From a virus (Duplodnaviria; Heunggongvirae; Uroviricota; Caudoviricetes), in the IMG/VR virus record IMGVR_UViG_2886837984_000001, positions 64,001-121,308 of that record: a stretch of 57,308 bases of DNA. One strand, given 5' to 3'. Below are positions 7,840 to 49,143 of this stretch, piece by piece. How positions within the stretch are numbered: the stretch's first letter is position 1; the number at the start of each line of letters is the position of its first letter. The notes under the pieces are model-generated. The model saw only the letters and a list, made by a program, of their open reading frames with translations. It was not told the DNA's origin and made no database searches. Position numbers and translations under genes: made by a program.

Positions 7840-8527
7840 ATTGAATAGCGCCATCATCAAACAGGGTGGTGGTTTTGATTTTGAGAAAGACAAAGAGGCC
7901 ACGAAGAGTTACTTCGTCGACTACGTGAACGAGAATACGGTTTTCTTCCACGATCTAAAAGAGAAATTAGAGTACATGGTTGAAAACGAATATTACGAAC
8001 GAGAGTTTTTGGAGAAGTACACATTCACTCAGATCAAGAAGCTGTTTAAGTATGTGTACAGCAAAAAGTTCCGTTTCCAATCGTTTATGTCAGCCTTCAA
8101 GACATACAACAACTATGTATTGAAGACAAATGACGGGAAACGTTTCCTGGAGCGCTACGAAGACCGTGTGTCAATCGTCGCCCTCTATCTGGGTCGAGGT
8201 GATTTCGAACTGGCGATGCGACTGGCCGAGGCGATGATCACGCAGCAACTTCAACCGGCAACGCCTACCTTCTTGAGTGCTGGACGAGCACGTCGAGGAG
8301 AATTGGTAAGTTGCTTCCTGCTCAACGTGAATGACTCGATGAATTCGATCGGCCACAACTTAAACAACGCCTTACAGTTATCGAAACGCGGTGGCGGTGT
8401 AGCAATCGATTTGACGAGTCTTCGAGCTCAAGGTGAGGCGATTAAAGAGATCGAAAACGCAGCGAGCGGTGTAGTTCCTGTCATGAAATTGTTGGAGGAT
8501 TCGTTTTCATATGCAAATCAACTGGGT
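7811..8527 (+). CDS. nrdE: Class Ib RNR alpha subunit, exon 1 of 3 (spliced product about 698 aa)
   Basis: [34 protein letters not shown], ends ...YANQLG. TTG start with RBS GAGGT. Confidence 0.93.
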
Positions 8528-8815
8528 TAATTCGGCTCAGTATAAATGTGGTCAATTGCTGGAACTCCCGAGTATATCCGAGTAGGATACCATCCAGAGA
8601 TGAGATGGCGACCCCTGAAAATCGAGGATTGCGGAAAATCAGCAGCCAAGCTTCTTTATCAGAAGAAGGTTCAACGACTAAGTGATTGTAAGAGCAATCT
8701 TTCAATCCGAACCACACGCAATAGCGAATATATAGTCTGATCCTTATGGCGACATGAGGAGTACGGCAGAAATGACCGTACCGCCAACAATTGTTGGTCT
8801 ACAAGTAACAGAATG
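8528..8815 (+). mobile_element. Group I intron nrdE-I1 (288 nt, no ORF)
   Basis: Exon ends in U and intron ends in G. IGS GCTCAGT (8535-8541) pairs with ACTGGGT. P/Q/R/S: AATTGCTGGAA, AATCAGCAGC, GTTCAACGACT, ATATAGTC. Splicing restores QLG|QRAGSG. Confidence 0.93.
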
Positions 8816-9238
8816 CAACGCGCCGGTAGCGGAGCTGTTTACCTAAATATCTTCCATGCGGATGTTGAAATGTTCCTCAGTACAAAAAAAGTAAACAGCG
8901 ACGAAAAGGTTCGAATTAAAACGCTCTCGCTCGGTCTGATTGCGCCCGATAAGTTCTTCGATCTGGCCGCAAAAGACCAGGATATGTATGTCTTTTATCC
9001 TCATACAGTCTATAAAGAGTACGGTGTGCGTTTAAACGAAATGGATATGACCGAAATGTATGACAAGTTGGTCGAGAACCCGAACGTCCGTAAACGACGT
9101 GTTATTGCTCGAGACTTGCTGAATGAGATTGCTAAGACTCAGATGGAGTCAGGTTATCCGTACATCATGTACATTGACAATGCGAATAAAGACAATCAGT
9201 TAAAGGACATCGGAAAGATTAAGATGTCAAACTTGTGT
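8816..9238 (+). CDS. nrdE: Class Ib RNR alpha subunit, exon 2
   Basis: QRAGSGAVYLNIFH...ESGYPYI...KMSNLC, ending on the thiyl-radical Cys. Confidence 0.93.
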
Positions 9239-9503
9239 TAGATTCTAGCACCTTCTACGAGCGATCGTAGTCGAAAACTCCGTTAAACGGGGAAACTCTC
9301 ACATGAGACAATCCCGTAGTAAAGATTCGCATATGCGATAAAAAACTCTAACGACTATCCCATTTGGGAGTACGCCATAAGCGATTGATGGCGGAAAAGC
9401 GGAGCATCTTACATAGATGATGATATAGTCTCCTCTGCATGGCGACATGTAGCAGTTCATAAGAGAACGCGTTGTTCGGTAGCGTGAATAACGGAAGACA
9501 AGG
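9239..9503 (+). mobile_element. Group I intron nrdE-I2 (265 nt, no ORF)
   Basis: TGT|tag ... acaagG|ACA. TAAACGGGGAA, AATCCCGTAG, TCTAACGACTA, GATATAGTC. Splicing restores SNLC|TEILQ. Confidence 0.92.
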
Positions 9504-10472: not shown

Positions 10473-11060
10473 ATGACACAAACGACACATAAGGCGGTCA
10501 ATTGGGACACGCCGACAAATGATTACGCTGAGATGTTCTGGCTTCAGAACACGAAACAAGTATGGTTTCCCGAAGAGATTCCGGTGTCGAAAGACGTAAA
10601 AGACTGGTCTCTCATGAATGAAGATGAGAAAGACGCTTATTCTAAGGTGTTAGCCGGACTCACAGCACTCGACACGATCCAAGGAGGGAGCGGTATGCCG
10701 CTCCTCTCTCTTATGATGGATGACCTTCAGGTGAAAGCTGTATTTACATTCCAGGCAGCTATGGAGTGCGTTCACGCAAGAAGTTATTCGACCATCTTTA
10801 CAACCCTTCTTCCGAAATCTAAGATTGACGGATATTTCAAGTGGGTTGAAGAGAACGAATTGCTTCAACGTAAGGCAGAGTTATTCGAGGGTGTATATCG
10901 CAACTTAGAGAAAGATAATCCTTTGTCTGTCTACAAGGGTCTTGTCGCTTCGGTAGCCCTGGAAACGGGAGCGTTTTACAGCGGTTTCTACTATCCACTC
11001 CTTCTTAAAGGTCAGGGTCGGATGACATCGAGCGGAGAGATTATTAAATTGATCGTGCGT
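10473..11060 (+). CDS. nrdF: Class Ib RNR beta subunit, exon 1 of 2 (spliced product about 327 aa)
   Basis: WFPEEIPVSKD, LTALDTIQ, ECVHARSYS, LETGAFYSGFY, ends IIKLIVR. Confidence 0.93.
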
Positions 11061-11308
11061 TGAATATGAAAGATGGCGCACGTAAAACCTTTTGAATTCA
11101 GGGAACATCCTAACGTAGAGACGAGGACAATCCTGAGCCAAGGTCGCATATGTGACAAGGTGCAACGACCATCTCGAAAGAGAGTACATCGTAAGCGATT
11201 GACGATGGAAGCGGAAGGCGACGAAAGTCGATGATATGGTCTGATCTGCATGGAGACATGTAGCTGCGAAAGCGCCCCTCTTAGTAGCGTGAGAGGGGGA
11301 ACATTATG
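11061..11308 (+). mobile_element. Group I intron nrdF-I1 (248 nt, no ORF)
   Basis: CGT|tga ... ttatG|GAT. IGS GCGCACG (11076-11082) pairs with CGTGCGT. GAATTCAGGGAA, AATCCTGAGC, GCAACGACCA / ATGGTC. Splicing restores IVR|DESIHG. Confidence 0.93.
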
Positions 11309-12412: not shown

Positions 12413-13906
12413 TAATCTGTGAGCGCCTTTACGTGGTGACACGTATAGCAAACCTGTCTAAACGGTGAAACTCTCGACTGATCCTCGAGACAATACCGTA
12501 CTAAATAAACCCTTGAGAAAACAAACTAAATGAAAAAATATTCTTTATATGTTATCATGAACAAGAAGGCAAAGAAGTATTACGTTGGAATTTCGTCTAA
12601 TCCAGAAAAAAGAAAAATCACCCATTTTTCTTCTCTCTCTCGAAACTCTCATCACAATCTCTATCTTCAAAGATCCTACAATAAAAATGGCGCAGACGCT
12701 TTTGAGTTCATCGTTTTATTTGACGAACTAAGCAAAGAGAAGGCGTCGGAAATTGAGGTTTACACAATCAAAACCTTTAAGAAGTTTCTCTACAACATAT
12801 CGAGAGTATCTTCTGGAGGAGATATTGTATCTTACCACCCCAACAACGCTGAAATCAGAAAGAAAATATCCAAAGCTTCCAGAGATCAGTGGGCAAATCG
12901 AGACGAAGAGTTTAAAAGGAGGATGTCTGAGCGCATGAAAGGTTCGAATAACCATATGTACGGTCAGACACACGACGAAGAAGCAAGAAGAAAAATTTCT
13001 GCCGCCCACACAGGAAGAAGACTAACAAAAGAGCACAAAGAAAAAATGGTTAAAACTAGACGAGAACGATATACGCAAGAGGATTTAAGTAGAATTGCTT
13101 CTGCTGCTTTAAAAAAACGATATTCCAAGCAAGAAGAGCGTGATCGAACAGCAGAAAGTTCGCGCAGAAATTGGCAGAATCCAGAGTATCGTTCGAAGAT
13201 GGAAATCAAGCTTAAAGAGATATCCGAGAATCGAATCGTAAAAGTGGTTTATAAAGGAGAAGAGTACGAAGGTAACAACTATCAAAGAATAGCCGACAAG
13301 ATCGGACTTTGTGTTCCTACTCTCTACAAGCGTTTAGATTCTAAAGACGAAGAGTGGTCGGATTGTTGGAGGGTGACACACGAAAAAAGAACCAACAACT
13401 TCGACTACTCTAAGAGAAAGAAAGCTCCTCCGAAAAGCCAAGCTTCAAAAGATAAAGTCGGTAGAGCGTCATCTATGGATCACGTCATCTACTTTCCAGA
13501 TGGTAAAGAAAAAAAGTTTTATAGTGGAAAAATGCTTTCTGAATATCTCAGAGACTTTCATTCTGTTGGTGGTGGTACGGTGAGCAGTCTAGTTAAGACT
13601 GGTGAACCGTGGAAGCCTAAGAAATACATACACAAACACCTAGAAGGAATTGTGATTAAAAATATCGGTATGATCAACCGGAAGTGAAAAGGAGGAAATT
13701 CTCAGGGGTTTTAAATGTCTAACGACTATCCCATCGGCCTTAAACGAGGCATTAGGAGTAGGGCGCAAGCTAACGGCGTGGGTGAGAATCCCTTAAATCG
13801 AAACGGCAGGGGTCTGATAAATCAGATCGTGATATAGTCTAATCTCATATGCGAATATGAGCTGCGCAAGCGGGATTGTTGTTGCGAAACAATCCGAATA
13901 CCAATG
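12413..13906 (+). mobile_element. Group I intron thyA-I1 (1494 nt) with endonuclease ORF looped out of P6
   Basis: CGT|taa ... ccaatG|TCA. CTAAACGGTGAA, AATACCGTAC, TCTAACGACTA, GATATAGTC. AAACCCTTGAGAA (12507-12519) pairs with TTCTCAGGGGTTT (13699-13711) around the ORF. Splicing restores QR|SSD. Confidence 0.93.
12530..13687 (+). CDS. Intron-encoded GIY-YIG homing endonuclease with NUMOD3-like repeats
   Basis: SLYVI...KYYVGISSNPEKRK..H..HHN..LQRSYNKNG..F.F, then GSNNHMYGQTHDEEARRKISAAHTG. Confidence 0.9.
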   Translation: MKKYSLYVIMNKKAKKYYVGISSNPEKRKITHFSSLSRNSHHNLYLQRSYNKNGADAFEFIVLFDELSKEKASEIEVYTIKTFKKFLYNISRVSSGGDIVSYHPNNAEIRKKISKASRDQWANRDEEFKRRMSERMKGSNNHMYGQTHDEEARRKISAAHTGRRLTKEHKEKMVKTRRERYTQEDLSRIASAALKKRYSKQEERDRTAESSRRNWQNPEYRSKMEIKLKEISENRIVKVVYKGEEYEGNNYQRIADKIGLCVPTLYKRLDSKDEEWSDCWRVTHEKRTNNFDYSKRKKAPPKSQASKDKVGRASSMDHVIYFPDGKEKKFYSGKMLSEYLRDFHSVGGGTVSSLVKTGEPWKPKKYIHKHLEGIVIKNIGMINRK

Positions 13907-15485: not shown

Positions 15486-16138
15486 TCAAAGAGTTGTTGA
15501 AGAATCAGGATGGCGTCAAGCGCCTTCAACAGTATCGGTACAAGTGTTTCTCGGTTCTAACATTAGAACAGAAGAAGAAGGTGTGTCGCTCGTGGATACG
15601 TGGGAGTGACGCAAAATGGATCTCGTGCTACTACGAAATCTCAGAAAAAGACGTGACGACCTGTACGAAAGAGCTTTATCAGATGGCGATGTCTCTCGGA
15701 CAAAAGAACGAACTGACACGAGACTTCGTCTGCTCGGACGGACTCGTTTATCTGATCGGTGAGATGTTGAACCATTGGAGTGTAAGAGAATTGCGTAAAG
15801 AGATCGGACTTACGACCAAGCAGCTTAGTGCGATTCGTGAACGTTATGAGCTGTTGACAGGGATTCCTTCAAAGCGAACGCCCGATAAAGACCGCAATCA
15901 TTTTAGCTTTGTGCGAGATGAGATTTCTCGGACGAGCCCTCATGACGGGTCGAAGATGAAGGTGCTGGACTGCCCGCTTCAGATGACGACGGAGCTCAAG
16001 TTCGACGGGATGGACTTCACGAAGGTCAAAGATTCGTACTACTGTATGGAATCATTGCGCGAATTCTTCGGATATGACGGAGACGACAACGGAAATCCGA
16101 AAGGGTTATACGAGATTCGCTACGAATACATCGATTGA
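15482..16138 (+). CDS. Hypothetical protein, paralogue of the previous gene
   Basis: 218-aa ORF with ATGA overlap. Confidence 0.75.
   Translation: MIKELLKNQDGVKRLQQYRYKCFSVLTLEQKKKVCRSWIRGSDAKWISCYYEISEKDVTTCTKELYQMAMSLGQKNELTRDFVCSDGLVYLIGEMLNHWSVRELRKEIGLTTKQLSAIRERYELLTGIPSKRTPDKDRNHFSFVRDEISRTSPHDGSKMKVLDCPLQMTTELKFDGMDFTKVKDSYYCMESLREFFGYDGDDNGNPKGLYEIRYEYID
15554..15569. repeat. Single consensus 16-bp palindrome inside a CDS
   Basis: GTTCTAACATTAGAAC. Confidence 0.7.
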
Positions 16139-19821: not shown

Positions 19822-19849
19822 AAGATGGTGGGCATATGCTCACCATCTT
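19822..19849. terminator. Hairpin between convergent gene blocks
   Basis: AAGATGGTGGGC-ATAT-GCTCACCATCTT. Confidence 0.65.
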
Positions 19850-20349
19850 CTTCGTTTAGCTTCTTCTCTATCCGCAATGATCTTATCCACCTTGCCTTCC
19901 ATCTTCTGAAAGTATCGAGGCGTGTTTGCGTCCTTGTTCGTATAGTATCTCGACCGACGATAATGATATTCGATATAGTCCGAGAACACATATATGAAAG
20001 GGGTTTTCGTCGTGGCCGAATAATCCTTGATCTCTCCATACAGTGCCGTCGGGATCAGAAGGCTTTTGACTTTCCAGTCGATCTTTTTGACACGAATCGG
20101 GATCAAGGGGGGAGTGTAGTCGCCGCTCTCGACGTTTAAGGGGAAGTCGTCCGCGATCTCTTTCATAAGATCGTTGACGGGAGTACCCGAATAGTAAGAG
20201 AGCATCTTAAGGATCTTATAGTCCCGCTCGTACACCTTCACGATCTTCCCTCTATCCTTGTTTCGTCTTGCCATATCCTCTTCGGTCAAGATGCTCGACT
20301 TCTTGTCCAACACCTTGTTCTTGTCAAAATTACTGTTTAACTTCTTCAT
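19840..20349 (-). CDS. Putative centromere-binding protein with two ribbon-helix-helix-like segments (type Ib ParB analogue)
   Basis: Directly downstream of and overlapping parA. Flexible basic N-tail, then IVKVYERDYKILKMLSYYSGTPVNDLMKEI and SLLIPTALYGEIKDYSATTKTPFIYVFSDYI. Confidence 0.6.
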   Translation of the reverse strand: MKKLNSNFDKNKVLDKKSSILTEEDMARRNKDRGKIVKVYERDYKILKMLSYYSGTPVNDLMKEIADDFPLNVESGDYTPPLIPIRVKKIDWKVKSLLIPTALYGEIKDYSATTKTPFIYVFSDYIEYHYRRSRYYTNKDANTPRYFQKMEGKVDKIIADREEAKRRRW

Positions 20350-21238
20350 TGCTCTCACTCATTTCCTTGATCCGCAGCAACACCTCGTCCACGACGGTCT
20401 CGAAGTGGGTCATCACCTCTTTATCCCAATTGTCGTACTCCCCAAAGTTGGTTGTGTCGGGATTAAAAGACTTCCCTTTTTCCGCCGCCTTGCGCATACG
20501 GGTCTCGATCATCTTCGGCACTAAGACATTTCTGTGGTACGCATACAGGCCATGCTTGGCGTACTTGCTGATCCGTGTCCGATAAGGGATGAACGCCCGG
20601 AAGAACGTGTCGTAGTCCGATAAGTCGTACTCTCGCGCAATCTCCACCATCGTATCCTTGTTGTCCTCACGTTTGTTCACCAGGACTCCTAAGAACTGAA
20701 GGTCTTTGTTGACGTGCTGATTGATCCGTTCGGCCACATCATAGAAGTCTCCGATTCCCTCGAACGAATATGCGCTCACCTCGCTCACGACGATAAAGTA
20801 GTCGCTAGCAGCCAAAGAGCTGTTCAAGAACACGCTGAACGTCGTAGGCGGTGTGTCAAAGAAGATGTAATCATAGTCATCCTCAATCTTTTTGACCATG
20901 TTTCGGAAATACGTGAACTCATTCTTTTCGTTCAATAAAAGACCGAAATTGGCCGTGTCTTGCGAGCTTGGAATGAAGTGGAAATTGACCGTCGGTCTCA
21001 GGATCGATGGCAACAGGTCTTTTGATTTCAGACCATCGAACACGGTTGTTGCGCTCTCAGAGAATCCGTCCTCATAGAACGTTTTAAACAATGTTCGTGT
21101 CGAGTTGGATTGAGGGTCAAAGTCCATAAACAATACCCTCTGACCTCTTTTGGCGAGCTCATACGCCACGAGCAAAGATGTTGTCGTCTTCCCGGCCCCA
21201 CCCTTAGAGTTACCTATCGTTAGCTTCTTTGCCATCAT
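20330..21238 (-). CDS. parA: ParA/Soj-family partition ATPase
   Basis: Deviant Walker A GNSKGGAGKTT, DFDPQSN, YIFFDTPP. No N-terminal HTH extension (type Ib). Confidence 0.93.
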   Translation of the reverse strand: MMAKKLTIGNSKGGAGKTTTSLLVAYELAKRGQRVLFMDFDPQSNSTRTLFKTFYEDGFSESATTVFDGLKSKDLLPSILRPTVNFHFIPSSQDTANFGLLLNEKNEFTYFRNMVKKIEDDYDYIFFDTPPTTFSVFLNSSLAASDYFIVVSEVSAYSFEGIGDFYDVAERINQHVNKDLQFLGVLVNKREDNKDTMVEIAREYDLSDYDTFFRAFIPYRTRISKYAKHGLYAYHRNVLVPKMIETRMRKAAEKGKSFNPDTTNFGEYDNWDKEVMTHFETVVDEVLLRIKEMSESNEEVKQ

Positions 21239-21277: not shown

Positions 21278-21338
21278 GTTCTAACATTAGAACATTAAAA
21301 GTTCTAATTGTAGAATATATAAGATACAACGTTAGAGT
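21278..21338. repeat. Palindrome array 1, at the parA promoter (3 copies)
   Basis: Copies start at 21278, 21301 and 21323 (third degenerate). They overlap a candidate minus-strand promoter TTGACG-18-TATCTT. Confidence 0.85.
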
Positions 21339-21999: not shown

Positions 22000-22037
22000 T
22001 ATCTAATGTTAGAAAATAAATATTACAAAGTTAGAAG
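22000..22037. repeat. Palindrome array 2 (2 degenerate copies)
   Basis: TATCTAATGTTAGAAA (22000) and ATTACAAAGTTAGAAG (22022), 22-bp phase. Confidence 0.65.
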
Positions 22038-35264: not shown

Positions 35265-35346
35265 GTTCTAACATTAGATTATTAATCTTCTACAATTAGA
35301 TGTTTTAGTTTCTAATGTTAGAACCTTTATATACCAACGTTAGAAC
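35265..35346. repeat. Palindrome array 3 (4 copies)
   Basis: Copies start at 35265, 35287, 35309 and 35331: exact 22-bp phase. Confidence 0.9.
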
Positions 35347-36140: not shown

Positions 36141-36165
36141 AAAAAGGAGAGCCGAAGCCCTCCTT
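36141..36165 (-). terminator. Intrinsic terminator after the TMP
   Basis: AAGGAGGGC-TTCG-GCTCTCCTT + T-run. The Dit RBS follows immediately. Confidence 0.8.
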
Positions 36166-39100
36166 AGCGTTTTCCGTACTTGTTGTTAATGAGGTTCATC
36201 GTGCGCTTCATGAAGTCGTCCGATGCCTCTTTGCCGTCCTTGATCTCGTTGTTGCTGAAATCGTTGTTGATGTTCTCGATATGAACCGTCGGAGCGCTAG
36301 ACCCCTTGACGCTCTGCATCTTGTTGATGAGCGAACGGAGAGGTGAGATGAGGCGGTCGGTGAATTCTACCGTCTTCAACATGTTCTTCGTCTGCTCTTG
36401 GTTGAGCACGAGCTCCTTCTTGTGGAGGATCGCCGGCATACCGCCGTTGAACTCGCCCGTGTACATACCGCCCGAAGCGAACGACCCGACGAAGTTCTTG
36501 TTCACATACCCCGTCTTGTCTCCGTATTGCACCTCATACATGAGCCCACGGTCACGGAGGATTTTGATCGACGTCCCTTTCGGGATCGATGTCATGATTC
36601 CTTCTACCGAGATATACGGGTTCGCATAAAGTGCGGCGTTCGAGCTCGTCTTCGCGTTCTTGTCGATCGTCGTGCTTCCTTTTAATGATTCGTACAGGGC
36701 GTCGAACTCGCGCTTGGCTCGGATGATCTCCGACTGCATGTCCGATAGGGACTTGACGTACTCGTCGAGCGCCTTGTTTCGATCTTCGTTCGTCGATGCC
36801 GACTCGTAAGCCGAATAATACTTCTGAAGAGCCGACTGTTGTTTCGATTTAATCCGGTTCGTACTATCCGTCACCATGTCGTCATAGACACGTTTGCCGG
36901 AATCGTAAGAGATCGAGTCGACACGGGCGTTATGCGCTTTTGCCGTCACGCTGTACTGCTTCAACAACTCGTTGATCGGTGCGCTCGCCTGATTGAGCTC
37001 CGACGCTCTCGTATGGCTCATCGCCACACCCCATGAGTTCGATTGTTTCGATGTGGACAGTTCTGAATTACTTACCCAACCCGTCTGACCGTTAGAAAGC
37101 TTAACTTTAGAATGTGTACCCGTCTGCTCAAGAACCTCGTACCCTTTTCCGTCGACCAACGACCCGATCACTTTAGAACTGCCGTTCGCATCTGCTCTCA
37201 CCGATACCGGTTTGGCAGAACCCGTTTGAGCCGCATACATCGATAACCCTGTCACCGGTGCTTCTTGCGATAAGTCGTCTCCCGAGCTCGGATTCTTGTA
37301 ATCCGTATCGAAATCTTTCCCTGTCAATTGCGAAAGAAGGTCTAACGCCTCTTTCAGCTTGTCGATGTAGTTCGTCTGCAAGACCTGTCCGAGAGAGTCG
37401 AACGAACTTTGAGACGTATGCACGATATCGCCCAACGCTTTTGAAATTGTGTCTGCGAGCGCGATGGTCTCGTACTCTGTGTCGTCGTAGAGATACGACA
37501 AATCTTTGAGCACGTCCTGATACGTCTTACCGAGGTTGTCGTACATCGTTCTGAATCCTTTCGATGTATCGATCAACATCTCGTTCGCCATCCGTTTCAC
37601 TTCGTCGAAGTTCCCTTTCATGGCTTGTTCGCGGATTTCGTTCCACTTCCGCTCGTCGTTCAACACGTCGTCGTAATATTTATTCAGGTCTTCGAGCATC
37701 TTGTCGAACAATGCCGATTCCGCTTCTTCACGACGATCCATGTCTTCCTCGAACTTCTCGTAGTTCTCGTCCTCTACCTTCTGTTTGTCATCGAGGTTCT
37801 TCTCGTACAATTCACGTTCTTTATCGATGGCTTCCTTCTGTTTCTCGAAGTCTCGTTGATACAGGTATTCCTCGCGCTCCTCTTGGAGTGTCTGGAGCTC
37901 TTTCATCAACTCTTTGCGTTTCGCCTTTGCCTCGAACGAGTCGTCCATCGAGATGCGGTTGATCGAACTACGGATCTCTTGCTCACGCTCCGAATACTCG
38001 TCCATCTGTTTCTGATGGCTTCGCTCGTCGTTCTGTTCATCTAAACGTTTGATACGCTCGTCGAAGAAGTCGTTCATCTTCTCGCGCTCTTTGTCTAGCT
38101 CCTTCATCGTCTTCTCGTGGGCATTCTGTCGGACGTTGCGTTCACGCTGAATGGCCTTCTCGCGCTCCTGCTGAATCTTCTCGATCGACTTGATCTCCGC
38201 GTCGCGCTGCGCCTCCAAAGCTTCGCGGATTGTTTCAATCATGCTGTCAGAGAAACCTCCGAGCATGTCTTTTTGAGCGGAGTTAAGGCTGTTCACCGAA
38301 TCCTCGAGCGACAACAGCTCCTCGCTGTACCGCTTCACGAATTCAAGTTGTTGTTCGTACTCTTTTGAGGATGCCCCGTATTTCTTGCGAACCTCTGACA
38401 AGATGGCTCTCTCTGCCTCTAGTTGCCGCTTCTTGATGTCCCAAAGCTTGCGCTCCGTCTTTTCTTGCTCGACGGTCGTGACATATTTCTTGACGAGGTC
38501 GGTGTTCGACTCACCGTCCATGATCGCCAATTGACGTTGGAAGAAATCTTGATTTTTTTTAAGGTCACGCATTTGATTTTCGTACAGTTTATTACGAATC
38601 TCTGTACGCTCGCGCGCGATTTCCATCGCCGCCTGACGCTCTTCCTGAATCTCTTGTTTGAGAACCCATCTGAGGTCGTCGAGTCGTGCCGTGAACTCGG
38701 CTTGACGAGATAGCGATAACTGCTTGTAATAAGCGCCTTTTCGATCTTTTTCCATTTGAATGATCTCGAGCTCGACGGCACGACGTTGGAGTCTCGCGTT
38801 GTTTTGCAGTTTCTCGTAGAGAGCCAACGATTGACGGGTGTACTCGACCGTCGTCTCCATGTTCGCGCGGACAAGCTCCTCGTCTTTCCCGTATCTGTCG
38901 TACATCGACTTATACGTGTTCGCCCGAGCGTTGAGGTAGTCGAGGATAATCTGTTGTCTGCTGTCTTCGATCTTGTTGAGCTCTTCAATCTGACGGATTT
39001 CTTCGGCTTTCTGTTCAGCTAGATTCTGTGCTTTTTCTGCCTGCGCTTTTGTTTGGTCGGCAATCTTCTTCTCTTGGTCTACCTGAGTAGAAGAGACGGA

Positions 39101-42100
39101 TGCTGCCGAAGTTGAAGGAGATTTACCTTGCGAAACCTTCGTATACATCGATGTGACGCCGTTTTTCCAATGAGCATTTAGTCCAGTTGGGTCGTTCCCG
39201 GCTCCGTTTGGCGCATATTTCTTCTGGATCTCAGCAATAGATGTAAGACCTTTTGTGATGTAGTTTCGAGACAAATTGCTGATCATCGCAGAGATGCCTT
39301 CGTCTAGCGACTTGAACACCGTCTGCTTCGTCCAGTTCGAAGAAGGACTCATTAATCCGCCTGGGTTGTTGTAGTTTTTAACCCCGTTAGACGTCCCGTT
39401 TCCTGTCTCGAACATCGCTATCGCCATCGCAAGAGCAGGGTCTACCCCGTACTTTTCTCCATATTTATTGAAAAGATGCTCCTGACCCTTGAATGCGCCT
39501 TGACCGACGCCGCTCGAAACCTTATTAAACGACGACGAAGAAGTTGATGCTTTAGAAATCGATGAAGAGGCACTTGAAGAGTATCCATATGTATTTCGTT
39601 TGCTGTATACGGCTTGTCTTGCTGCTACAGTCGGGTTAAGAAGGTTTGTGTTCCATTTACCCATAGAAGAACGTTGTTCGTAGTGGACGTGAGGGCCGGT
39701 CGAGTTTCCTGTGTTACCAACCGTCCCGATGCGTTGGCCGACGCCGACTTTAGCGCCCTTTTTGGCTTCAATCTTATCGAGGTGTCCGTAGATATGGAAA
39801 ATTCCCGACGTGTCCTGGATGACGACGTTGTTTCCATACTCGGAAGGAATTCCTAGAGATTTGTTCGCTCCACCAGCATGAATGACCGTACCGTTGACGT
39901 TCGACTCTAAAGGAGTTCCGCGCTTGTTGGCAATATCAATCCCTTCGTGTTGCCACGTTTTTCCGTTGATCGTCCGCATAGAACCATATGAGGAACTAAT
40001 TTTTGCGCCAGACCAACCGCTCAACGAACGTGTCCCGGTTTTCTGAAATCCTCCTGTTGCAGAAGAGTTAGAACCATTGTATGCGACGTCGTAGCTGTTG
40101 GTTGTTCCGCCTCGAGCGACGATATTCCCGTTGGCGTCTGTGACGACTTCCTGTGTCGATGTTTGAACACCCGTACTCGCAATAACCTGTTTAGATTTGT
40201 TGGCATCTTGAAGCGCCTTAATGTAATCTGTGACAGATTTTTTCTGTTTATCCATTGCTTTGATCTCGGACTCGAGCGCCTTGATATAGGCTTTTGAACC
40301 GTTAGCATATTTGTTCTTGAACGCAGACTGCTTCTGGACGGCCAATGTCGCCTTGTCGATAGCTTCCGTATATTTATTCGTCAAGTAGGTAGAACGAGAG
40401 ATTGTATCCTGCTTGTTCTTCTCTGACTTAGATGAATCCTTGTTCGCTTCTTCAGCCGCTTTGTTCGCATTGTAAAGGTCTTGTGTCGAAGTTGTGACCG
40501 TAGCTACAATCTTACGAGCGTTTTCTTCGGACTTTTTCATTCCGTTAATGAACTCGTCTGTGCTAGATAAGTCTGCCGTAAGTCTTCCGATCATATCTCC
40601 GGCGTACATCTGTCTGCCGTAGTTCGGGTCATCCGGGTCGATCGAGTTCATTTTATTCTCAATATCAGCAATCTGCTTGGCTGTCTCTTGTTTTACTAGA
40701 ACTAAAGCCTTTTCTGCTTCTGCGATCGAGGTGATCCCTGCAATACGATCTGCCGTCAATTCTGCGGAGAACCTTGCAGTAAATTCATCCTGGAGACGTT
40801 GTGCAGTCGCCTGTTTCAGTTTTTCTTCGAACTGAAGTCGTTGCGTCTCACGAAGTTCCTCGATAAGACCTGTGTTGACCGTCACCATGCCGTTCGATAC
40901 ATCGAATGCGTCGATCAGCTCTGGATATTTGTCGATCAACCCCATCATTTCGCTCGCCGTGAATTGATGTCCTTCTGCACTCTTATGTAAAACGTCGTTA
41001 TAAGCGTCTACCGTACCGACAACATCTCTCAGCGCATCTTTCTGGTATCCCAACGCCTCTTCGAGCATTCCGATCCCTGTGGCTGCTGTTTCGGCAGACT
41101 CACCAAGATTTTCGTTGCCTTCGGTTAAGTCGGATACGCCGGCCAAAGCATCGTAGGCCGCGCTCTGCGTTTCCTCCATCTTCGCATTTTGCATGACGAT
41201 AGCCGCTGTCGCAGTATTGATCGCATGTCCCTCTTCAGAAGCTACCTGAATGATCTGTCTGCCAGAATTGGCGACATCGGTCTTCGCTTGCTCTAAGGCT
41301 TGATATTGCGCGAGGTAGCTTCCAGTTAAGCCTGAATCCGTTGCCACATTCGCAGCGCCCAATATTCTCTTCTGTTCGTTCTCAAGTTCGACGATTTTTT
41401 GAGCGTAGGTGTTGATGAATTTCGTGGCTTCTTCCATCTGTTTATTTCCGCTCGCGCTCTTAAACAACGTCTCATCAAAGCTAGGCATATCTGTAAGGAT
41501 ATTAGAAATGTCCAAGATATCCATCTTAACTTTTTCGATCTCAACCAACAGCTTGTCTACGTTGAATTCGCCGTTTTCGTCAACCGCGTTTTTCAACGCT
41601 TTGTCGACAATATCTTGATCGATGTTTGTGACGAGGGAGTCAACTAATTTCTGCTGTTCTCCAGCAAGATTTGCGTATTCATCCGAAGATTGGATAGACA
41701 GTGTGATCTGGTCTCGCGTAAGCTTGATCCGTTCCATCTGAGACTGTTTCAACAGACGTTCCGCCGCAAGTTCTCCTCGCTTGTCTCTCTCTCGAGCCTT
41801 GCCGACATCATCTGCTCCGGCCGAATAGATTGCGGAGTCGGTGATTGCGCCTTGCGCCATCTCCATGTCTCTCGCATATTCTTCATCCGTCATCTTCTTC
41901 TTGTTCAGATACTTCTCGTAGTCCTTGTTCGCTTTTTCAAGCTGTTCCGCATTATCAACCAAAGAGTCTTCGTTTTTATCTGACTTCTTCATCGCTTCGA
42001 GCTGTTGCATCTCTTTGAGCGATTTGATGTACTCTTGGGCAGAAACGGATGTCGATAGGTGCGTCCGTCCAAGTTCGTCGACGTGTGTCACGAGCTCGGG

Positions 42101-43159
42101 CAGATAGCCTCCTAGAGATTTGGCCGTCGAATACATAAGTTCGGTCTCTTCCGCCGAACGGTTCGTGTTGGCCTGAAGATTCTCGTAACGTTCTGCAAGC
42201 ATGTCGATCGTGTCAGAATTATCGCTATATGCTTTAACAAGCTCTTTTTGTTCTTGTTTTGCTTTCGCGACTTCCGCACGTTGTTTTGTGAACGCAGAAA
42301 TGAGAGCTCCGATTGCTACGGTAGCCGCTGCGATTCCTGCCCCGATGACAAGAGATGTTCCGATTGCCGCCATCGTCGTCACCATGAATCCTTTAACGGC
42401 CGTTCCTGCAATACGGAATCCTCCGGCTGTGGCGTGAGCCGCACCTTTGACTTTATCCAAAGACGTCGCGACGTTACCATTTATCGGGACGACCTTTTGA
42501 TTTTCGTTCCGACTTTTCACAACAGCAGCGGTGGCATCCTGGTAAGAAGATGTCACACCTTGCAATTTCTCTCTGAAAGCGGCCAAAGGCTTCTCGTCGA
42601 ATACGGCATTACGGACTCCACCGTTCATGAGCGTCGTAAGACCACCCGTGACCCCTGCGAGCATCGTGAAACCTGCGAGCAAGTTTCCTTTAGAGAAGTC
42701 CAGCGAGATCAATGCGTTGATGCTGTTGACCATGTAACGAAGGTCGTTCGTGACGGTCGTGATCATATCGACGAACACGGTGTTTCCTGCCGACAATGCG
42801 AGTTCTTCCCACGCCACCTTGAGCTTGTTGACCTTGGCTTGCGCCGACTCGAGATAACGGGCGTTCTCTTGCATGGCCGACCCTTGCGAGTTGATAGACG
42901 TGTTCGTCGCTTTGACGGCGACGTCGTAGTTTTGCATGAGACCAAGAAATCTCGAGATTTGGAAGCGGCCTGCCAATTGAACAGCAAGGTTTTGTTGTTG
43001 TGCATTCGTGAGATTGTTCCACTTGCCAGAAAGATCTTCTAAGATTCTTGCGTAAGCCCGTGTTGTTCCGTCTTCTTCAAATACTTCGATTCCGACGTCT
43101 TTTAAAGAACTTACTGATCCACTCATTGTTACACGAGAGAAAATTGTCTTGAGCGAGTT
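36164..43159 (-). CDS. Tape measure protein, exon 3 (contains M23 peptidase, glucosaminidase/lysozyme-like domain, two SH3b-like domains)
   Basis: Starts NSLKTIFSR. HEGIDIAN...YGHL...STGPHVHYE. YGVDPALAMAIAMFETG...NNPGGL. SH3b-like GQTGWV and KTGYV segments. Confidence 0.9.
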   Translation of the reverse strand, partial: NSLKTIFSRVTMSGSVSSLKDVGIEVFEEDGTTRAYARILEDLSGKWNNLTNAQQQNLAVQLAGRFQISRFLGLMQNYDVAVKATNTSINSQGSAMQENARYLESAQAKVNKLKVAWEELALSAGNTVFVDMITTVTNDLRYMVNSINALISLDFSKGNLLAGFTMLAGVTGGLTTLMNGGVRNAVFDEKPLAAFREKLQGVTSSYQDATAAVVKSRNENQKVVPINGNVATSLDKVKGAAHATAGGFRIAGTAVKGFMVTTMAAIGTSLVIGAGIAAATVAIGALISAFTKQRAEVAKAKQEQKELVKAYSDNSDTIDMLAERYENLQANTNRSAEETELMYSTAKSLGGYLPELVTHVDELGRTHLSTSVSAQEYIKSLKEMQQLEAMKKSDKNEDSLVDNAEQLEKANKDYEKYLNKKKMTDEEYARDMEMAQGAITDSAIYSAGADDVGKARERDKRGELAAERLLKQSQMERIKLTRDQITLSIQSSDEYANLAGEQQKLVDSLVTNIDQDIVDKALKNAVDENGEFNVDKLLVEIEKVKMDILDISNILTDMPSFDETLFKSASGNKQMEEATKFINTYAQKIVELENEQKRILGAANVATDSGLTGSYLAQYQALEQAKTDVANSGRQIIQVASEEGHAINTATAAIVMQNAKMEETQSAAYDALAGVSDLTEGNENLGESAETAATGIGMLEEALGYQKDALRDVVGTVDAYNDVLHKSAEGHQFTASEMMGLIDKYPELIDAFDVSNGMVTVNTGLIEELRETQRLQFEEKLKQATAQRLQDEFTARFSAELTADRIAGITSIAEAEKALVLVKQETAKQIADIENKMNSIDPDDPNYGRQMYAGDMIGRLTADLSSTDEFINGMKKSEENARKIVATVTTSTQDLYNANKAAEEANKDSSKSEKNKQDTISRSTYLTNKYTEAIDKATLAVQKQSAFKNKYANGSKAYIKALESEIKAMDKQKKSVTDYIKALQDANKSKQVIASTGVQTSTQEVVTDANGNIVARGGTTNSYDVAYNGSNSSATGGFQKTGTRSLSGWSGAKISSSYGSMRTINGKTWQHEGIDIANKRGTPLESNVNGTVIHAGGANKSLGIPSEYGNNVVIQDTSGIFHIYGHLDKIEAKKGAKVGVGQRIGTVGNTGNSTGPHVHYEQRSSMGKWNTNLLNPTVAARQAVYSKRNTYGYSSSASSSISKASTSSSSFNKVSSGVGQGAFKGQEHLFNKYGEKYGVDPALAMAIAMFETGNGTSNGVKNYNNPGGLMSPSSNWTKQTVFKSLDEGISAMISNLSRNYITKGLTSIAEIQKKYAPNGAGNDPTGLNAHWKNGVTSMYTKVSQGKSPSTSAASVSSTQVDQEKKIADQTKAQAEKAQNLAEQKAEEIRQIEELNKIEDSRQQIILDYLNARANTYKSMYDRYGKDEELVRANMETTVEYTRQSLALYEKLQNNARLQRRAVELEIIQMEKDRKGAYYKQLSLSRQAEFTARLDDLRWVLKQEIQEERQAAMEIARERTEIRNKLYENQMRDLKKNQDFFQRQLAIMDGESNTDLVKKYVTTVEQEKTERKLWDIKKRQLEAERAILSEVRKKYGASSKEYEQQLEFVKRYSEELLSLEDSVNSLNSAQKDMLGGFSDSMIETIREALEAQRDAEIKSIEKIQQEREKAIQRERNVRQNAHEKTMKELDKEREKMNDFFDERIKRLDEQNDERSHQKQMDEYSEREQEIRSSINRISMDDSFEAKAKRKELMKELQTLQEEREEYLYQRDFEKQKEAIDKERELYEKNLDDKQKVEDENYEKFEEDMDRREEAESALFDKMLEDLNKYYDDVLNDERKWNEIREQAMKGNFDEVKRMANEMLIDTSKGFRTMYDNLGKTYQDVLKDLSYLYDDTEYETIALADTISKALGDIVHTSQSSFDSLGQVLQTNYIDKLKEALDLLSQLTGKDFDTDYKNPSSGDDLSQEAPVTGLSMYAAQTGSAKPVSVRADANGSSKVIGSLVDGKGYEVLEQTGTHSKVKLSNGQTGWVSNSELSTSKQSNSWGVAMSHTRASELNQASAPINELLKQYSVTAKAHNARVDSISYDSGKRVYDDMVTDSTNRIKSKQQSALQKYYSAYESASTNEDRNKALDEYVKSLSDMQSEIIRAKREFDALYESLKGSTTIDKNAKTSSNAALYANPYISVEGIMTSIPKGTSIKILRDRGLMYEVQYGDKTGYVNKNFVGSFASGGMYTGEFNGGMPAILHKKELVLNQEQTKNMLKTVEFTDRLISPLRSLINKMQSVKGSSAPTVHIENINNDFSNNEIKDGKEASDDFMKRTMNLINNKYGKR

Positions 43160-43438
43160 CATGTCTGTTACTTTCTTTTGTCCTAATATTCTAATGTTAG
43201 AATATATAAGTTCTAATGTTAGAACAAAATACTGACCAACATATACCTGAAACCCGTTGGCGGAGAGGCGCTTCAACCTCTCTCTTGCAGTCTCCTGCAA
43301 AGTTCAGACTATCGCTTCACATACACATGGGTATGTGTCTTTTCGTTTAGTCGTTCACGCTGCCATTACGCTTGCGCCCTGTTGTCCCATATGAGGGAGT
43401 TCCAAGTCGATTAGAAAAGATTTTACATCGGCAACTCT
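43160..43438 (-). mobile_element. Group I intron TMP-I2 (279 nt, no ORF)
   Basis: Minus strand ATCGGT|agagttGCCGAT (6-bp P1 with U-G). TCTTTTC/GAAAAGA P3. GTGAACGACTA / GATAGTC P7. Ends ...acatG|AAC. Splicing restores ANIG|NSLKTIFSR. Confidence 0.9.
43188..43225. repeat. Palindrome array 4 (2 copies) inside intron TMP-I2
   Basis: ATTCTAATGTTAGAAT (43188) and GTTCTAATGTTAGAAC (43210), 22-bp phase. Confidence 0.9.
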
Positions 43439-43592
43439 ACCGATATTCGCTCCTGAATCTCGTGTTACTTCCTGTACTGCCGTGATATAGCCAAGTAGTT
43501 CGTCCATCGATACGCCGTAAGTGTTTGCGGCGGCCGCAGATCGACCCATCGCGATTGCCAGGTCTTTTGTAGTTGTAGCATACGAATTATCT
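43439..43592 (-). CDS. Tape measure protein, exon 2 (154 nt)
   Basis: (V)DNSYATTTKDLAIAMGRSAAAANTYGVSMDELLGYITAVQEVTRDSGANIG: TMP core motif. Confidence 0.9.
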
Positions 43593-43872
43593 CATGGAAA
43601 TTATTGTAAAATAACTAATAATTTCTAACTGTTACTTTCACCTTTCGGCTACTGACCCTTTTGGGCGGATATACATTTCTGCATACCTCTCATGCTTATT
43701 CTGAATCGCATGAGGTCGGACTGTACCTTTATCCGTTCTGGATAGGTGATGGCAGTCTCTAGCGGTCTCCTGTTTAGGATTTCCGTCGGTATTGCCCTTT
43801 GAATCAGATAGGGGTTTCACCGATATACACCATTTCGTCAATCACATTCCTGTGAAGGGAGGCAGACATTTT
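43593..43872 (-). mobile_element. Group I intron TMP-I1 (280 nt, no ORF)
   Basis: Minus strand GAGGT|aaaatgtctGCCTC (P1). TATATCGGTGAA, AATACCGACGG, CTAGAGACTG / ACAGTCC. Ends ...tccatG|A GAT. Splicing restores LNEV-DNSY. Confidence 0.9.
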
Positions 43873-46376
43873 ACCTCGTTCAACTTATCGATGATCATCA
43901 TCGATTTTTCCGCTTCTACGTTAAAGACCGACATTCCGGTGATCAACGTCTCAGACATCTCTTGTGCCGACAAATCGGATACGTTCGATGCGATGACAGA
44001 TGTCTTCGTCAATGCGTTCAACTGTTCTTCCGAATAGTTGCCCGACTTCGCGAAGTTCTCCATCGCATAGTTGATATCTGTGACCGTCTTCCCGAGTTCT
44101 TTCGCCATCTCGATGTTTCCGGCCAAGACCTCGTCAAAGTTCGTGTCGGCGTCCATGACACGTTTCAAGTTCGTCATCTGCGTGTCTACCTGCATGATGA
44201 TGTTGTACATGCTGGTCAGACCTTGGATCGGCGCATAGAACGCGCTCGAGGCGAGCATCCATACCGGGAACTTCTCGAATGCGGTACGCATCGAATAACC
44301 GACCGTGTCGGTCGCCCCGCGCAACTCTTTCATGTTGTTCCGTAGGCGGACGGTACGCGCCTGAATCTCGTCCATTTGCGTCGTCCAGTTTTTGTATGTC
44401 GTGTTACCTTTGTCGTCTGTAATCGACTGGATGAGCGAAGCGCCCTTATCTCCTCGTCTGACCGCCGAAAGACGATCTTCCGCTTCTTTGGCCAACGCTT
44501 GGATTTGTTTATATTCTTCCTTGTACCGACCTCTCATGCCTCGACTATACGATTGACGAACCTCTGCCAACAACGATTCACGTTGGGCGAACATCGAAGA
44601 TGCGCTTGCGATGTCTTCTTTTTGTCCGACACCACCGCGATAACGCTCCGACATCTCACGCTTGAGTTGACTATATTTTTTACGGATTTCGTCGATCTCT
44701 TTGATCGTTTTCGCAGAATTGATATTAACCGAGAAATCGTCAAGACGTTTAACGTCAGCTCCGAGAAGCTTATATTTGGATCTAATATCGTCAAGACCGT
44801 CAATCATCCCTCGTTTCTTGCCAAGGAATTCTTTATCGACCCCCGTCTGACCACGAAGCATCTCCCCATACTCTTTCTTGAACTCGGCCATCCGCTTGGA
44901 CGTCGGGTCGTTCTTGAGCATTTCGAGTGATTGCTGCATCGCTGAGACTTGTCTCTCTGTATATTCTACGCCTTCCTTATCGGCCATACGTCCGTCTTTT
45001 TTCATATCGTTGATACGCTTCTGATAACGAGCCGCATCGTTCATTACACGGACTTCAGCCGCGAGGTCATTAATACCCACCCCGATGACCGCATTATTTT
45101 CTGGTGTCAGCGTCTTACGGATACGTTCCCGCATCGATTTGATCCGTTTCTCGTCGACCAGTCCGTTGTTCTCGACCCAATCCATACGGGACAGCATGGC
45201 CGGAACCTGGTTGAACGCAGCCTTCATGCGTCGAATCTCGGCGTTGACCAACTTCTTCTCATCGACCGTGTTGACACCCGAGATCTTCTTATCGAACTCT
45301 GCGAAGATCTTCTGTTTCGACTTTCCGAGTTTGACACCGGCGTCTTCTAGTCCTGCCGTGATGGTCATCAACTGAGACAGTTCGTTCTGAAGTCCCTTGC
45401 GAAGCGTCTTGTGTTCGAACACTTCGCCAAGATTTTTGGTTTTTTCTTCCATGACATCCATCGTCGAAGCAAATTCTTTTAATGATTTTGTGTCGTAGAG
45501 GTCTGCACCTTGGAGCGTCTTCTCGAACTTCTTCATATCCTTCTCGAGATCCGTCCGGTCGCCGTTGTTGTTGAAGCGGTTCTGTTTGAAGCCGTCGATC
45601 TGTTTCTGAACCTCTTTTTGACGCTTCAGAAGCTTCTCTTGCTCGGCTTCGATACGTTTGTAGTCGCGGACGACCTGTTCATTCGTCTGCATGAGCATCT
45701 GGGCGATATCGCCTGTCGTCTCGTCGACGACACCGCGCATCTCATAAAACGTCTTCTTGAGAGATCCGACCGAATCTGTATATTCGACCGCAAAGCCCTT
45801 CAGTTCGCCTTGAGATTTTTTGGCCGTACTTTTCTTAACACGATTCCCCATCGCCTCGATGTCACGCTCGACGTCTGCGATATCCTTGTACATCTTCTTA
45901 ATATCTTTATTGAGGTCGTCTGTCAGCGTCTTGACGCCCTTGGCATCCGATTGGTTCTGCGCGAGAGCCGGATTCGTTTTAGCCGCTTCAGCAGATGATA
46001 CCGATTGAAGGTTCGTCTTGATCTTGATCGGTTCGGAGAAGATGTTCTGAATCTTCTTCTTCGAATCTCTCGCCATCTGTTCGATCTCTTTGAGCGTCGA
46101 CTGCATCGCGTCACGATGTTCCTTACGAGCTCCACGGAGGGCAGATGTATAGGTACTGATGATCTTCCTCGTGTTCTTCTCGATCGCTCCCTCGATATCT
46201 TCGGTCATCGATTTCATCATCTTGTCGAAGTTGGCCGTGTCGACCTGTAAAGAGACGTTAAAATTCTTGGTCAACTTTTGTAGGTCGGACAGAGCGGTCT
46301 CCATATTCGTTTTCGATACGGCACGATCGACATCGAAAGCCATGACTAAAGAGTAATTTTGAGCATTATTAGCCAT
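43873..46376 (-). CDS. Tape measure protein, exon 1 (spliced gene 9654 nt, about 3217 aa)
   Basis: Long helical ORF ending in the TP901-type TMP core (VDTQMTNLKRV...NVSDLS....IIDKLNEV). Confidence 0.88.
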
Positions 46377-47923: not shown

Positions 47924-47983
47924 GTTCTAACGTTAGAACAAACAGTTTCTAACATTAGAATATTAAAGTTCTAACATTAGAAC
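47924..47983. repeat. Palindrome array 5 (3 copies) upstream of the recombinase
   Basis: Copies start at 47924 (perfect palindrome GTTCTAACGTTAGAAC), 47946 and 47968. Confidence 0.9.
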
Positions 47984-49038: not shown

Positions 49039-49143
49039 ATTCCAATGTTAGAACGTTGTACGGTTCTTCCATCAGTTATGAAAGTTCTAATGTTAGAACA
49101 TTTAATTTCTACAATTAGAACTTTTAGATTCTAATGTTAGAAC
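49039..49143. repeat. Palindrome array 6 (4 copies)
   Basis: Copies start at 49039, 49084, 49106 and 49128. Confidence 0.9.

Follow-up and report, generated by a model that had tools for sequence, protein, structure and literature searches.

Group I introns of bacteria and their phages are usually viewed as selfish elements that carry nothing other than a homing endonuclease, and introns of this type in tape-measure genes already appear in the literature. Several described systems come close, each in part, to the arrangement reported here. The td group I intron of phage T4 contains a late promoter together with an operator of I-TevI, through which the endonuclease is autorepressed (Edgell et al.; PMC2988022). 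Also in T4, as in the case of segG and gene 32, promoters of essential genes lie inside free-standing homing-endonuclease genes, an association that favours the retention of the latter (PMC2988022). The omega/delta system of pSM19035 is a type Ib partition system in which omega binds arrays of heptads in three promoter regions, and these regions also function as parS (PMC9499535, PMC2441792). The plasmid prophage N15 has dispersed centromere sites, IR1-4 (PMC7205306, citing Ravin and Lane 1999), and the cluster A mycobacteriophages have stoperators, many repressor sites that silence transcription through lytic genes (PMC9283540). Finally, the late genes of SPbeta-type phages are transcribed by the YonO polymerase, whose promoter sequence is undefined (PMC5467207).

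The DNA analysed in this study, called the window throughout, consists of 57,308 nucleotides and corresponds to bases 64001-121308 of a metagenomic virus record that is 121,308 bp long and has terminal repeats. On the evidence of the YomU, YomO, YomN, YomF, YomG and YonB families found in its close relatives, the phage is placed among the SPbeta-like phages of Exiguobacterium. Genes lie on the minus strand from approximately 20 kb to the end of the window, and the tape-measure gene on that strand is divided into three pieces: exon 1 (43873-46376, 2504 nt, its translation ending in ...KLNEV), exon 2 (43439-43592, 154 nt) and exon 3 (36164-43159, 6996 nt), the last of which encodes M23 peptidase, glucosaminidase and SH3 domains. 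They are separated by two group I introns on the same strand, intron 1 at insertion site a (43593-43872, 280 nt) and intron 2 at site b (43160-43438, 279 nt), the latter without any ORF. The spliced coding sequence is 9654 nt long, its sole stop codon is the terminal one, and the exon junctions (KLNEV/DNSYATT and SGANIG/NSLKTIFSR) are in frame and fall within the conserved tape-measure core. The 3' tail of intron 2 carries two perfect copies, 22 bp apart, of a palindrome, TTCTAAnnTTAGAA, that recurs in phased arrays elsewhere in the genome. In our view these palindromes are probably sites of a phage-specific dimeric regulator, placed in the linker of the intron, the binding itself being putative.

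The nature of intron 2 was considered before that of its cargo. When the 821-nt region was scanned alone, the RF00028 model scored intron 2 at 37.4 bits (E 7.5e-8), which is below the gathering score of 50, and intron 1 at 22.7 bits (E 0.0019); both tape-measure introns were missed by Rfam at the gathering threshold over the whole window and by an E-value scan of 15 kb. The alignment of intron 2 covers P3, P4-P6, P7, P8 and P9, the model ending at P9 (43284). Direct reading of the sequence revealed P1 (AUCGGU/GCCGAU, with a U.G pair at the 5' splice site), and P10 is formed by AACUC of the 3' exon and GAGUU beside the guide, with the terminal G at 43160. P3 (UCUUUUC/GAAAAGA), P7, P8 and a GAGA-capped P9 were also readable, and the fold z-score was -3.6. 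Additionally, the ANIG/NSLK sequence is continuous in five related phages (L006, L007, L008, L011 and L016), all of them without an intron at site b, and the site-b intron of another relative, L010, has a core 93% identical to that of the window, identical guide and exon sequences, and a P8 helix altered on both strands in a compensatory manner. On this evidence we accept intron 2 as an authentic group I intron, its self-splicing being predicted. This phage was absent from the sequencing runs (shares of at most 0.14), and the contigs of RNA libraries were exclusively unspliced forms of its relatives.

The tape-measure introns of this phage group all end in the same manner, with GTCAGTA, a linker, GAAAGTAACAG and a few bases before the splice site (18 tails compared), and within this genome such a tail is found in the two tape-measure introns only. 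That of intron 1, GTCAGTAGCCGAAAGGTGAAAGTAACAG, has a 9-nt hairpin as its linker and no palindromes. In intron 2 both conserved flanks are present, GTCAGTA at 43236-43230 and GAAAGTAACAG at 43175-43165, and the variable linker delimited by the comparison of the 18 tails comprises 54 nt (43176-43229, minus strand) with the array inside it: copy 1 of TTCTAATGTTAGAA at 43211-43224 and copy 2, equally perfect, at 43189-43202. The original prediction of two 22-bp-phased palindromes in this intron, downstream of P7 and 28 nt from the 3' splice site, was borne out; the copies are downstream of P9 as well, and it is the nearer one that lies 28 nt from the terminal G. It had also been stated that none of the other five introns has them. 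No copy with at most one mismatch was indeed found in intron 1 or in the introns at 8498-8759, 9229-9452 and 11032-11263, so that the statement stands for every other intron located, with the correction that five introns, not six, were located in the window. With respect to the last three, all on the plus strand, that at 8498-8759 is a group I candidate scoring just under the Rfam gathering score (48 bits, E 1.5e-9), and those at 9229-9452 and 11032-11263 were called as group I introns.

The palindrome is far from rare in this phage. The window contains 15 copies with at most one mismatch, against 0.18 expected from shuffled sequences, and none of 100 shuffles reached 15. In the whole genome there are about 24 units, spaced 22 bp within about eight arrays, and an isolated copy at genome position 7710. 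One array stands at the head of the late block (genome 6110-6189). Array D (21279-21337) has three units adjoining the parA promoter, array E (22001-22036) two units upstream of a small acidic ORF beside parA, and array F (35266-35345) four phased units downstream of the Dit gene. Array H (47925-47982) consists of three phased palindromes just upstream of a tyrosine-recombinase-like gene, and array I (49040-49142) of four to five phased units between the tube-gene terminator and the yomO-like gene. A single copy is found at 15555 (genome 79555) beside a plus-strand ORF of the replication block. All arrays except that of the intron lie in intergenic DNA, most of them just before the ribosome-binding site (RBS) of a minus-strand late gene. 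They are confined to the late block and parA, while approximately 70 kb of early genes hold only the isolated copies at genome 7710 and 79555. No sigma-70-like promoter was predicted at the late-region arrays, no conserved sequence was found after the arrays, and their placement relative to terminators is inconsistent. The intron array is located about 2.7 kb into an otherwise uninterrupted coding sequence of 9.7 kb, in the gene that makes up the longest part of the late block devoid of intergenic DNA; if the array were removed, the gap from array H to array F would be 12.6 kb.

Two simple identities for the palindromes were considered and rejected. Sigma-70 promoter hexamers were dismissed in view of the inconsistent orientation of the palindromes and the lack of a predicted promoter. 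Core sites of a tyrosine recombinase were dismissed because a centre of only 2 bp would not suffice and because array-less relatives have the recombinase gene as well. This tyrosine-recombinase-like gene (PF00589; 46925-47905, minus strand) is part of the tail module and is located just upstream of the tape-measure chaperone-like gene. It is kept at that place in every relative whose sequence reaches the position, with arrays or without, and L008 has a second copy further downstream.

The gene next to array D, parA (20330-21238, minus strand), encodes a 302-aa Walker-type ATPase without an N-terminal helix-turn-helix (HTH) domain (Pfam AAA_31, 7.8e-37; CbiA, 1.9e-18), with the KGGAGKT motif at residues 12-18. 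Its end is overlapped by the gene of a partner (19840-20349, minus strand), a protein of 169 aa that is predicted to be a tandem ribbon-helix-helix (RHH) protein and that gave no match against Pfam. The AF2 model, of moderate confidence (pLDDT 69 overall and 79-90 in the core, from a three-sequence alignment), consists of two strand-helix-helix motifs preceded by a basic, disordered N-terminal tail. Its best Foldseek matches were weak (E 0.02-2.4) but consistent, namely TraY of the F relaxosome, AvtR, DndE, VirC2 and single-chain Arc, all of which we take to be tandem or single-chain RHH proteins. Both parA and the partner gene were found in the three array-bearing phages for which the region was retrieved, namely that of the window, L015 and L017 (the genome of L008). 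The partner of L015, a phage with the same palindrome, is 71% identical to that of the window, and that of L017, with a different palindrome, 50%; the two specificity groups are distinct in both predicted beta-strands (KIVKVY and KSLLIP versus RSIKMF and KTMNFT). The layout of array D is repeated in L015 and L017, where a three-unit array of their own palindrome lies just upstream of the extended -10 element of parA. The partner family is tiny: a word search found one other cluster at 90% identity, and HMMER one 50%-identity representative among 1.8 billion proteins. By its adjacency and its co-variation with the palindrome in three genomes, and by analogy to ParG and omega of type Ib systems, the 169-aa partner is the leading candidate, and most likely the protein, that would bind the palindromes.

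Thus, we propose that the two palindromes of intron 2 are binding sites of a dimeric regulator, most likely the tandem RHH protein encoded right after parA, and that the intron array would be one node among about eight phased arrays marking the parA promoter and the leftward late (structural) block. The bound protein would act as in type Ib partition, repressing its own parA operon and binding the late region of a plasmid prophage as a centromere protein or a silencer. We infer that binding occurs, which protein is responsible and what the arrays do in the phage, and among these steps the role of the intron array is the least certain. A role as operator and centromere is favoured by the link to parA, by the repressor-like position at the parA promoter, and by the fact that relatives with these same late genes can be array-free.

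Both this phage and pSM19035 have a ParA without HTH domain and an RHH partner, which is predicted in our case, and both have repeat arrays at the par promoter and elsewhere; the arrays of pSM19035 are operator and centromere at once, and the same double role is suggested here. The differences are that omega is a 71-aa single RHH protein recognizing 7-bp heptads, whereas the partner described here has 169 aa, a predicted tandem RHH and putative 14-bp palindromic sites with a 22-bp period, and that the arrays of this phage number about eight, mostly in the late operon and one of them in an intron. As in N15, several palindromic sites are scattered through the phage genome instead of forming one sopC-like block; the system of N15, however, is of type Ia, with SopB and single inverted repeats, none of them in an intron, and the plasmid prophage state of the present phage is presumptive. 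The stoperators likewise are many copies of one site in short non-coding gaps across a phage genome, but they are single, asymmetric and orientation-dependent sites of a monomeric HTH repressor, whereas those of this phage are symmetric and form phased arrays. The T4 td intron resembles intron 2 in having a protein-binding DNA site (putative in our case) within a self-splicing phage intron, acting at the DNA level and independently of splicing. The td site controls the intron's own homing-endonuclease gene, while intron 2 has no ORF and its array would belong to a genome-wide network built on the phage's motif. In segG and gene 32 of T4 a selfish element also carries a regulatory signal of the host genome, although there it is a promoter in the coding sequence of the endonuclease gene and here a repeat array in a ribozyme hairpin.

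It must be considered that the layout of the arrays is compatible in about equal measure with a regulator of late genes and with a centromere, because they are confined to the late block and parA, show no sigma-70-like promoters and are inconsistently placed with respect to terminators. The arrays could then be sites of a late-gene activator or accessory factor and the intron copy a point of internal re-initiation or boosting, and the centromere reading would be wrong. The array at the head of the late block and those before late genes near the RBS, none with a sigma-70-like promoter, would agree with this, as would the array-free early region with its two isolated copies and the undefined promoter of YonO (PMC5467207). 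We nevertheless consider this activator reading unlikely. A transcript begun in the intron tail could not splice and would begin with an untranslatable 7-kb exon unless there were an internal start; more distant relatives with the same late genes have no arrays, which are thus dispensable for late transcription as such; the same motif overlaps the host-type extended -10 promoter of parA, in a manner resembling repression; and nothing is conserved in the sequence after the arrays.

The tape-measure region was compared in ten relatives (L006-L014 and L016), with three insertion sites: site a, after LNEV, site b, after ANIG, and site c, approximately 70 codons further on. In five of these phages (L009, L011, L012, L013 and L014) the intergenic regions are short and arrays are absent; the compared region of L011 is intron-free, and in the other four the linker of the site-b or site-c introns is a small hairpin of 12-16 nt. 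In L007, which has no intron at site b or c, no array was found in the 14-kb contig with a finder that is too strict for degenerate arrays such as those of L006 and L010. In the remaining four, L016, L008, L006 and L010, phased arrays occupy the intergenic positions that they also occupy in the window. The palindromes are of three types: that of the window is shared by L016, ACCnAnnTnGGT is found in L008, and TACTAAnTTAGTA in L006 and L010. Each of the five array-bearing phages has, within the linker of its last tape-measure intron, a 22-bp-phased array of its own palindrome, and the intron concerned is at site b in the window, at site c in L016, L008 and L006, and at both sites in L010. These expanded linkers measure 54-109 nt and have two to five units each, while in array-less introns the linker is of 9-16 nt. 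The introns at site a have the same tail and never an array. In the loci of L006, L008 and L010 (18-23 kb), every match with at most one mismatch is in an array or an intron tail, and so are seven of the eight matches in L016. A perfect TTCTAAGTTTAGAA was observed in L016 at 12697-12710, in the tape-measure coding sequence and outside any array. The linkers differ much more than the cores to which they are attached: between the site-c introns of L008 and L016 the core is 88% identical and the linker 43%, and the site-b introns of the window and L010 are approximately 93% identical up to P9.1, with unrelated linkers.

These comparisons bear on the proposal, made from the window alone, that the intron had been domesticated as a landing pad for binding sites. 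It holds in so far as the phage's own palindrome occupies the linker in five of five array-bearing phages and a short hairpin does so in the array-less ones. What would have refuted it, the sequence being a general P9 feature of this intron family in genomes lacking the other arrays, was not observed, the linkers of L009, L012, L013 and L014 being the short hairpins mentioned above. The suggestion that the palindromes serve as P9-type hairpins fits as well, since the array replaces a terminal hairpin of 12-16 nt. That the array makes the intron hard to lose is true only loosely: the same palindrome is in the site-b intron here but at site c in L016, which means that the array is not tied to one particular intron. 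Moreover, the array-bearing phages form one clade, and the split between five of five and none of four could stem from one gain; only the switches of motif and the difference between sites b and c argue for continued selection. We tentatively suggest, as a possibility, that the linker is an exchangeable cassette slot, that a partition or silencing array in mid-gene, and not homing, keeps the ORF-less intron, and that the array is rewritten when the specificity of the binder changes.

The same data must be weighed against the possibility that the array is a neutral passenger, its units having spread by recombination into tolerant non-coding DNA and the intron copy having no function. The linker is certainly permissive, ranging from 9 to 109 nt among the relatives and being an unrelated 86-nt hairpin in the contig L018; the common flanks GTCAGTA and GAAAGTAACAG would permit the exchange of cassettes among introns; and there is the single clade of array-bearing phages. 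Yet the equally permissive linkers at site a and the other introns of this genome are all array-free, both intron copies are perfect and among the best sites of the genome, an array is present in the tape-measure intron of every one of the five array-bearing phages, and each time the palindrome type has changed, the array in the intron is of the new type and not a decayed version of the old one. A purely neutral insertion is for these reasons (perfect copies, tolerant introns left array-free, and retuning after each change of specificity) quite improbable.

The variation within the units points to a DNA site. Among the 24 units, 20 of the arm changes were uncompensated and two compensated, and the central dinucleotide may be CA, TG, CG or AA within single arrays, both orientations occurring. 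When the parA array of this phage was compared with that of the 123-kb relative (L015/L016), the arms were identical at 23 of 24 positions and the centres and spacers at 6 of 13; for the array before the recombinase-like gene in the same pair, the arms were identical at 34 of 36 positions and the spacers, by inspection, at about one third. The 22-bp register is kept between both phages while the spacers diverge. Uncompensated arms, two-way centres and a kept register are expected of a cooperative, dimeric DNA-binding protein on one face of the helix and not of an RNA helix, so the palindrome seems to behave as a DNA site rather than as an RNA stem, the binding of protein being putative. That the palindromes act as RNA, in the form of tandem hairpins extending P9 and used for processing or by a splicing cofactor, and likewise in the intergenic arrays, has very little probability: each unit is able to form a hairpin and the array does replace one in the ribozyme tail, but the arm changes are mostly uncompensated, conservation is of sequence and not of pairing, the strict register persists despite the divergence of the spacers, and the sites upstream of and over the parA promoter would be largely untranscribed there.

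If the palindromes are operators of a dimeric regulator, as we favour, their coexistence with the ribozyme could be explained as follows. The array would fill the one freely variable element of the intron family, the terminal hairpin between GTCAGTA and GAAAGTAACAG, close to the 3' splice site. An operator that is a palindrome is complementary to itself and would therefore fold locally in the RNA, so that its units would stand in for the original short hairpin and leave the core undisturbed, with the tail motif and the terminal G kept near it. As the array is spliced out, there would be no cost to the protein, and at the DNA level a binding array would be gained inside a long uninterrupted coding sequence. 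Since the relatives keep an array of their own palindrome in a tape-measure intron, the intron appears to be used to house protein-binding DNA within the 10-kb gene. An array so near the 3' splice site might also couple the occupancy of the DNA to the output of spliced tape-measure mRNA. The original suggestion that protein bound here could pause RNA polymerase and influence splicing is conjectural.

Intronic regulatory DNA is routine in eukaryotes and, to our knowledge, has not been described for phage ribozymes. The ORF-less intron of this phage would carry cargo of its host phage's regulatory or partition network, repeatedly retuned along with that network. If the binding is true, this would be a clear prokaryotic case of an intron that gives regulatory DNA space inside a gene, it would offer a concrete selective reason for the persistence of an intron without homing endonuclease, and the ParA partners would constitute a small orphan family of tandem RHH proteins for which three DNA specificities can be read. 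The system lends itself to direct tests, as the array can be exchanged for the short hairpin of the relatives without altering the protein. In open-access text we found no description of a ribozyme hairpin bearing an array of a phage-wide regulator or centromere network; the broader claim that no case of such dual use is known has to be qualified by the I-TevI operator of the T4 td intron, which serves the intron's own gene (PMC2988022).

With regard to the intron family in general, the tape-measure gene is highly polymorphic in its introns, with sites a, b and c occupied in varying combinations among the ten relatives by introns of one family. The site-a introns of L006 and L007 contain an ORF of 298 aa and the site-b introns of L009 and L012 one of 277 aa, both probable homing endonucleases without a Pfam match. 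The array could be imagined as the remnant of a homing-endonuclease promoter; this was rejected, as the endonuclease ORFs of the relatives occupy a different loop and not the tail. The 3' end of intron 2, ...ACAGAATG, supplies an ATG (43161-43163) which, for an intron at site b, shares the reading frame of exon 3. For the site-c introns (about 7987-8003 in L006, L008, L010 and L016) this ATG opens a frame of four codons whose stop overlaps the next in-frame ATG (TAATG). Its use as an internal start codon was also rejected, because only at site b does the frame agree and because introns without arrays conserve the ATG just as well; as these have it too, the ATG is probably incidental.

Scans of IMG/VR and of the GTDB genomes with a tape-measure fragment, a tube-protein alignment and the tail pattern as queries found no relatives. 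Introns of the same family that differ in the linker or the tail region were observed in metagenomic data. In the JGI metagenome contig Ga0265294_10013824 (L018, 7208-7316), an intron with identical tail motifs interrupts a different gene, and its linker is an 86-nt GC-rich hairpin and not an array, which indicates that this peripheral position is permissive in general. The site-b intron is also present in contigs of a wastewater metagenome and of a marine metatranscriptome, where 77 and 84 other letters take the place of the tail region (43160-43259 in the window), probably further variants of the linker. A search of a phage collection with the intron core returned just two records, both distant: over approximately 95 nt, the 5' half of intron 2 (43339-43433) shares 79-80% identity with an unannotated stretch of Roseobacter phage CRP-118 (OR420741), and its identity to the Caudoviricetes record MW202674 is 73%, so that related intron cores are present in phages of unrelated hosts.
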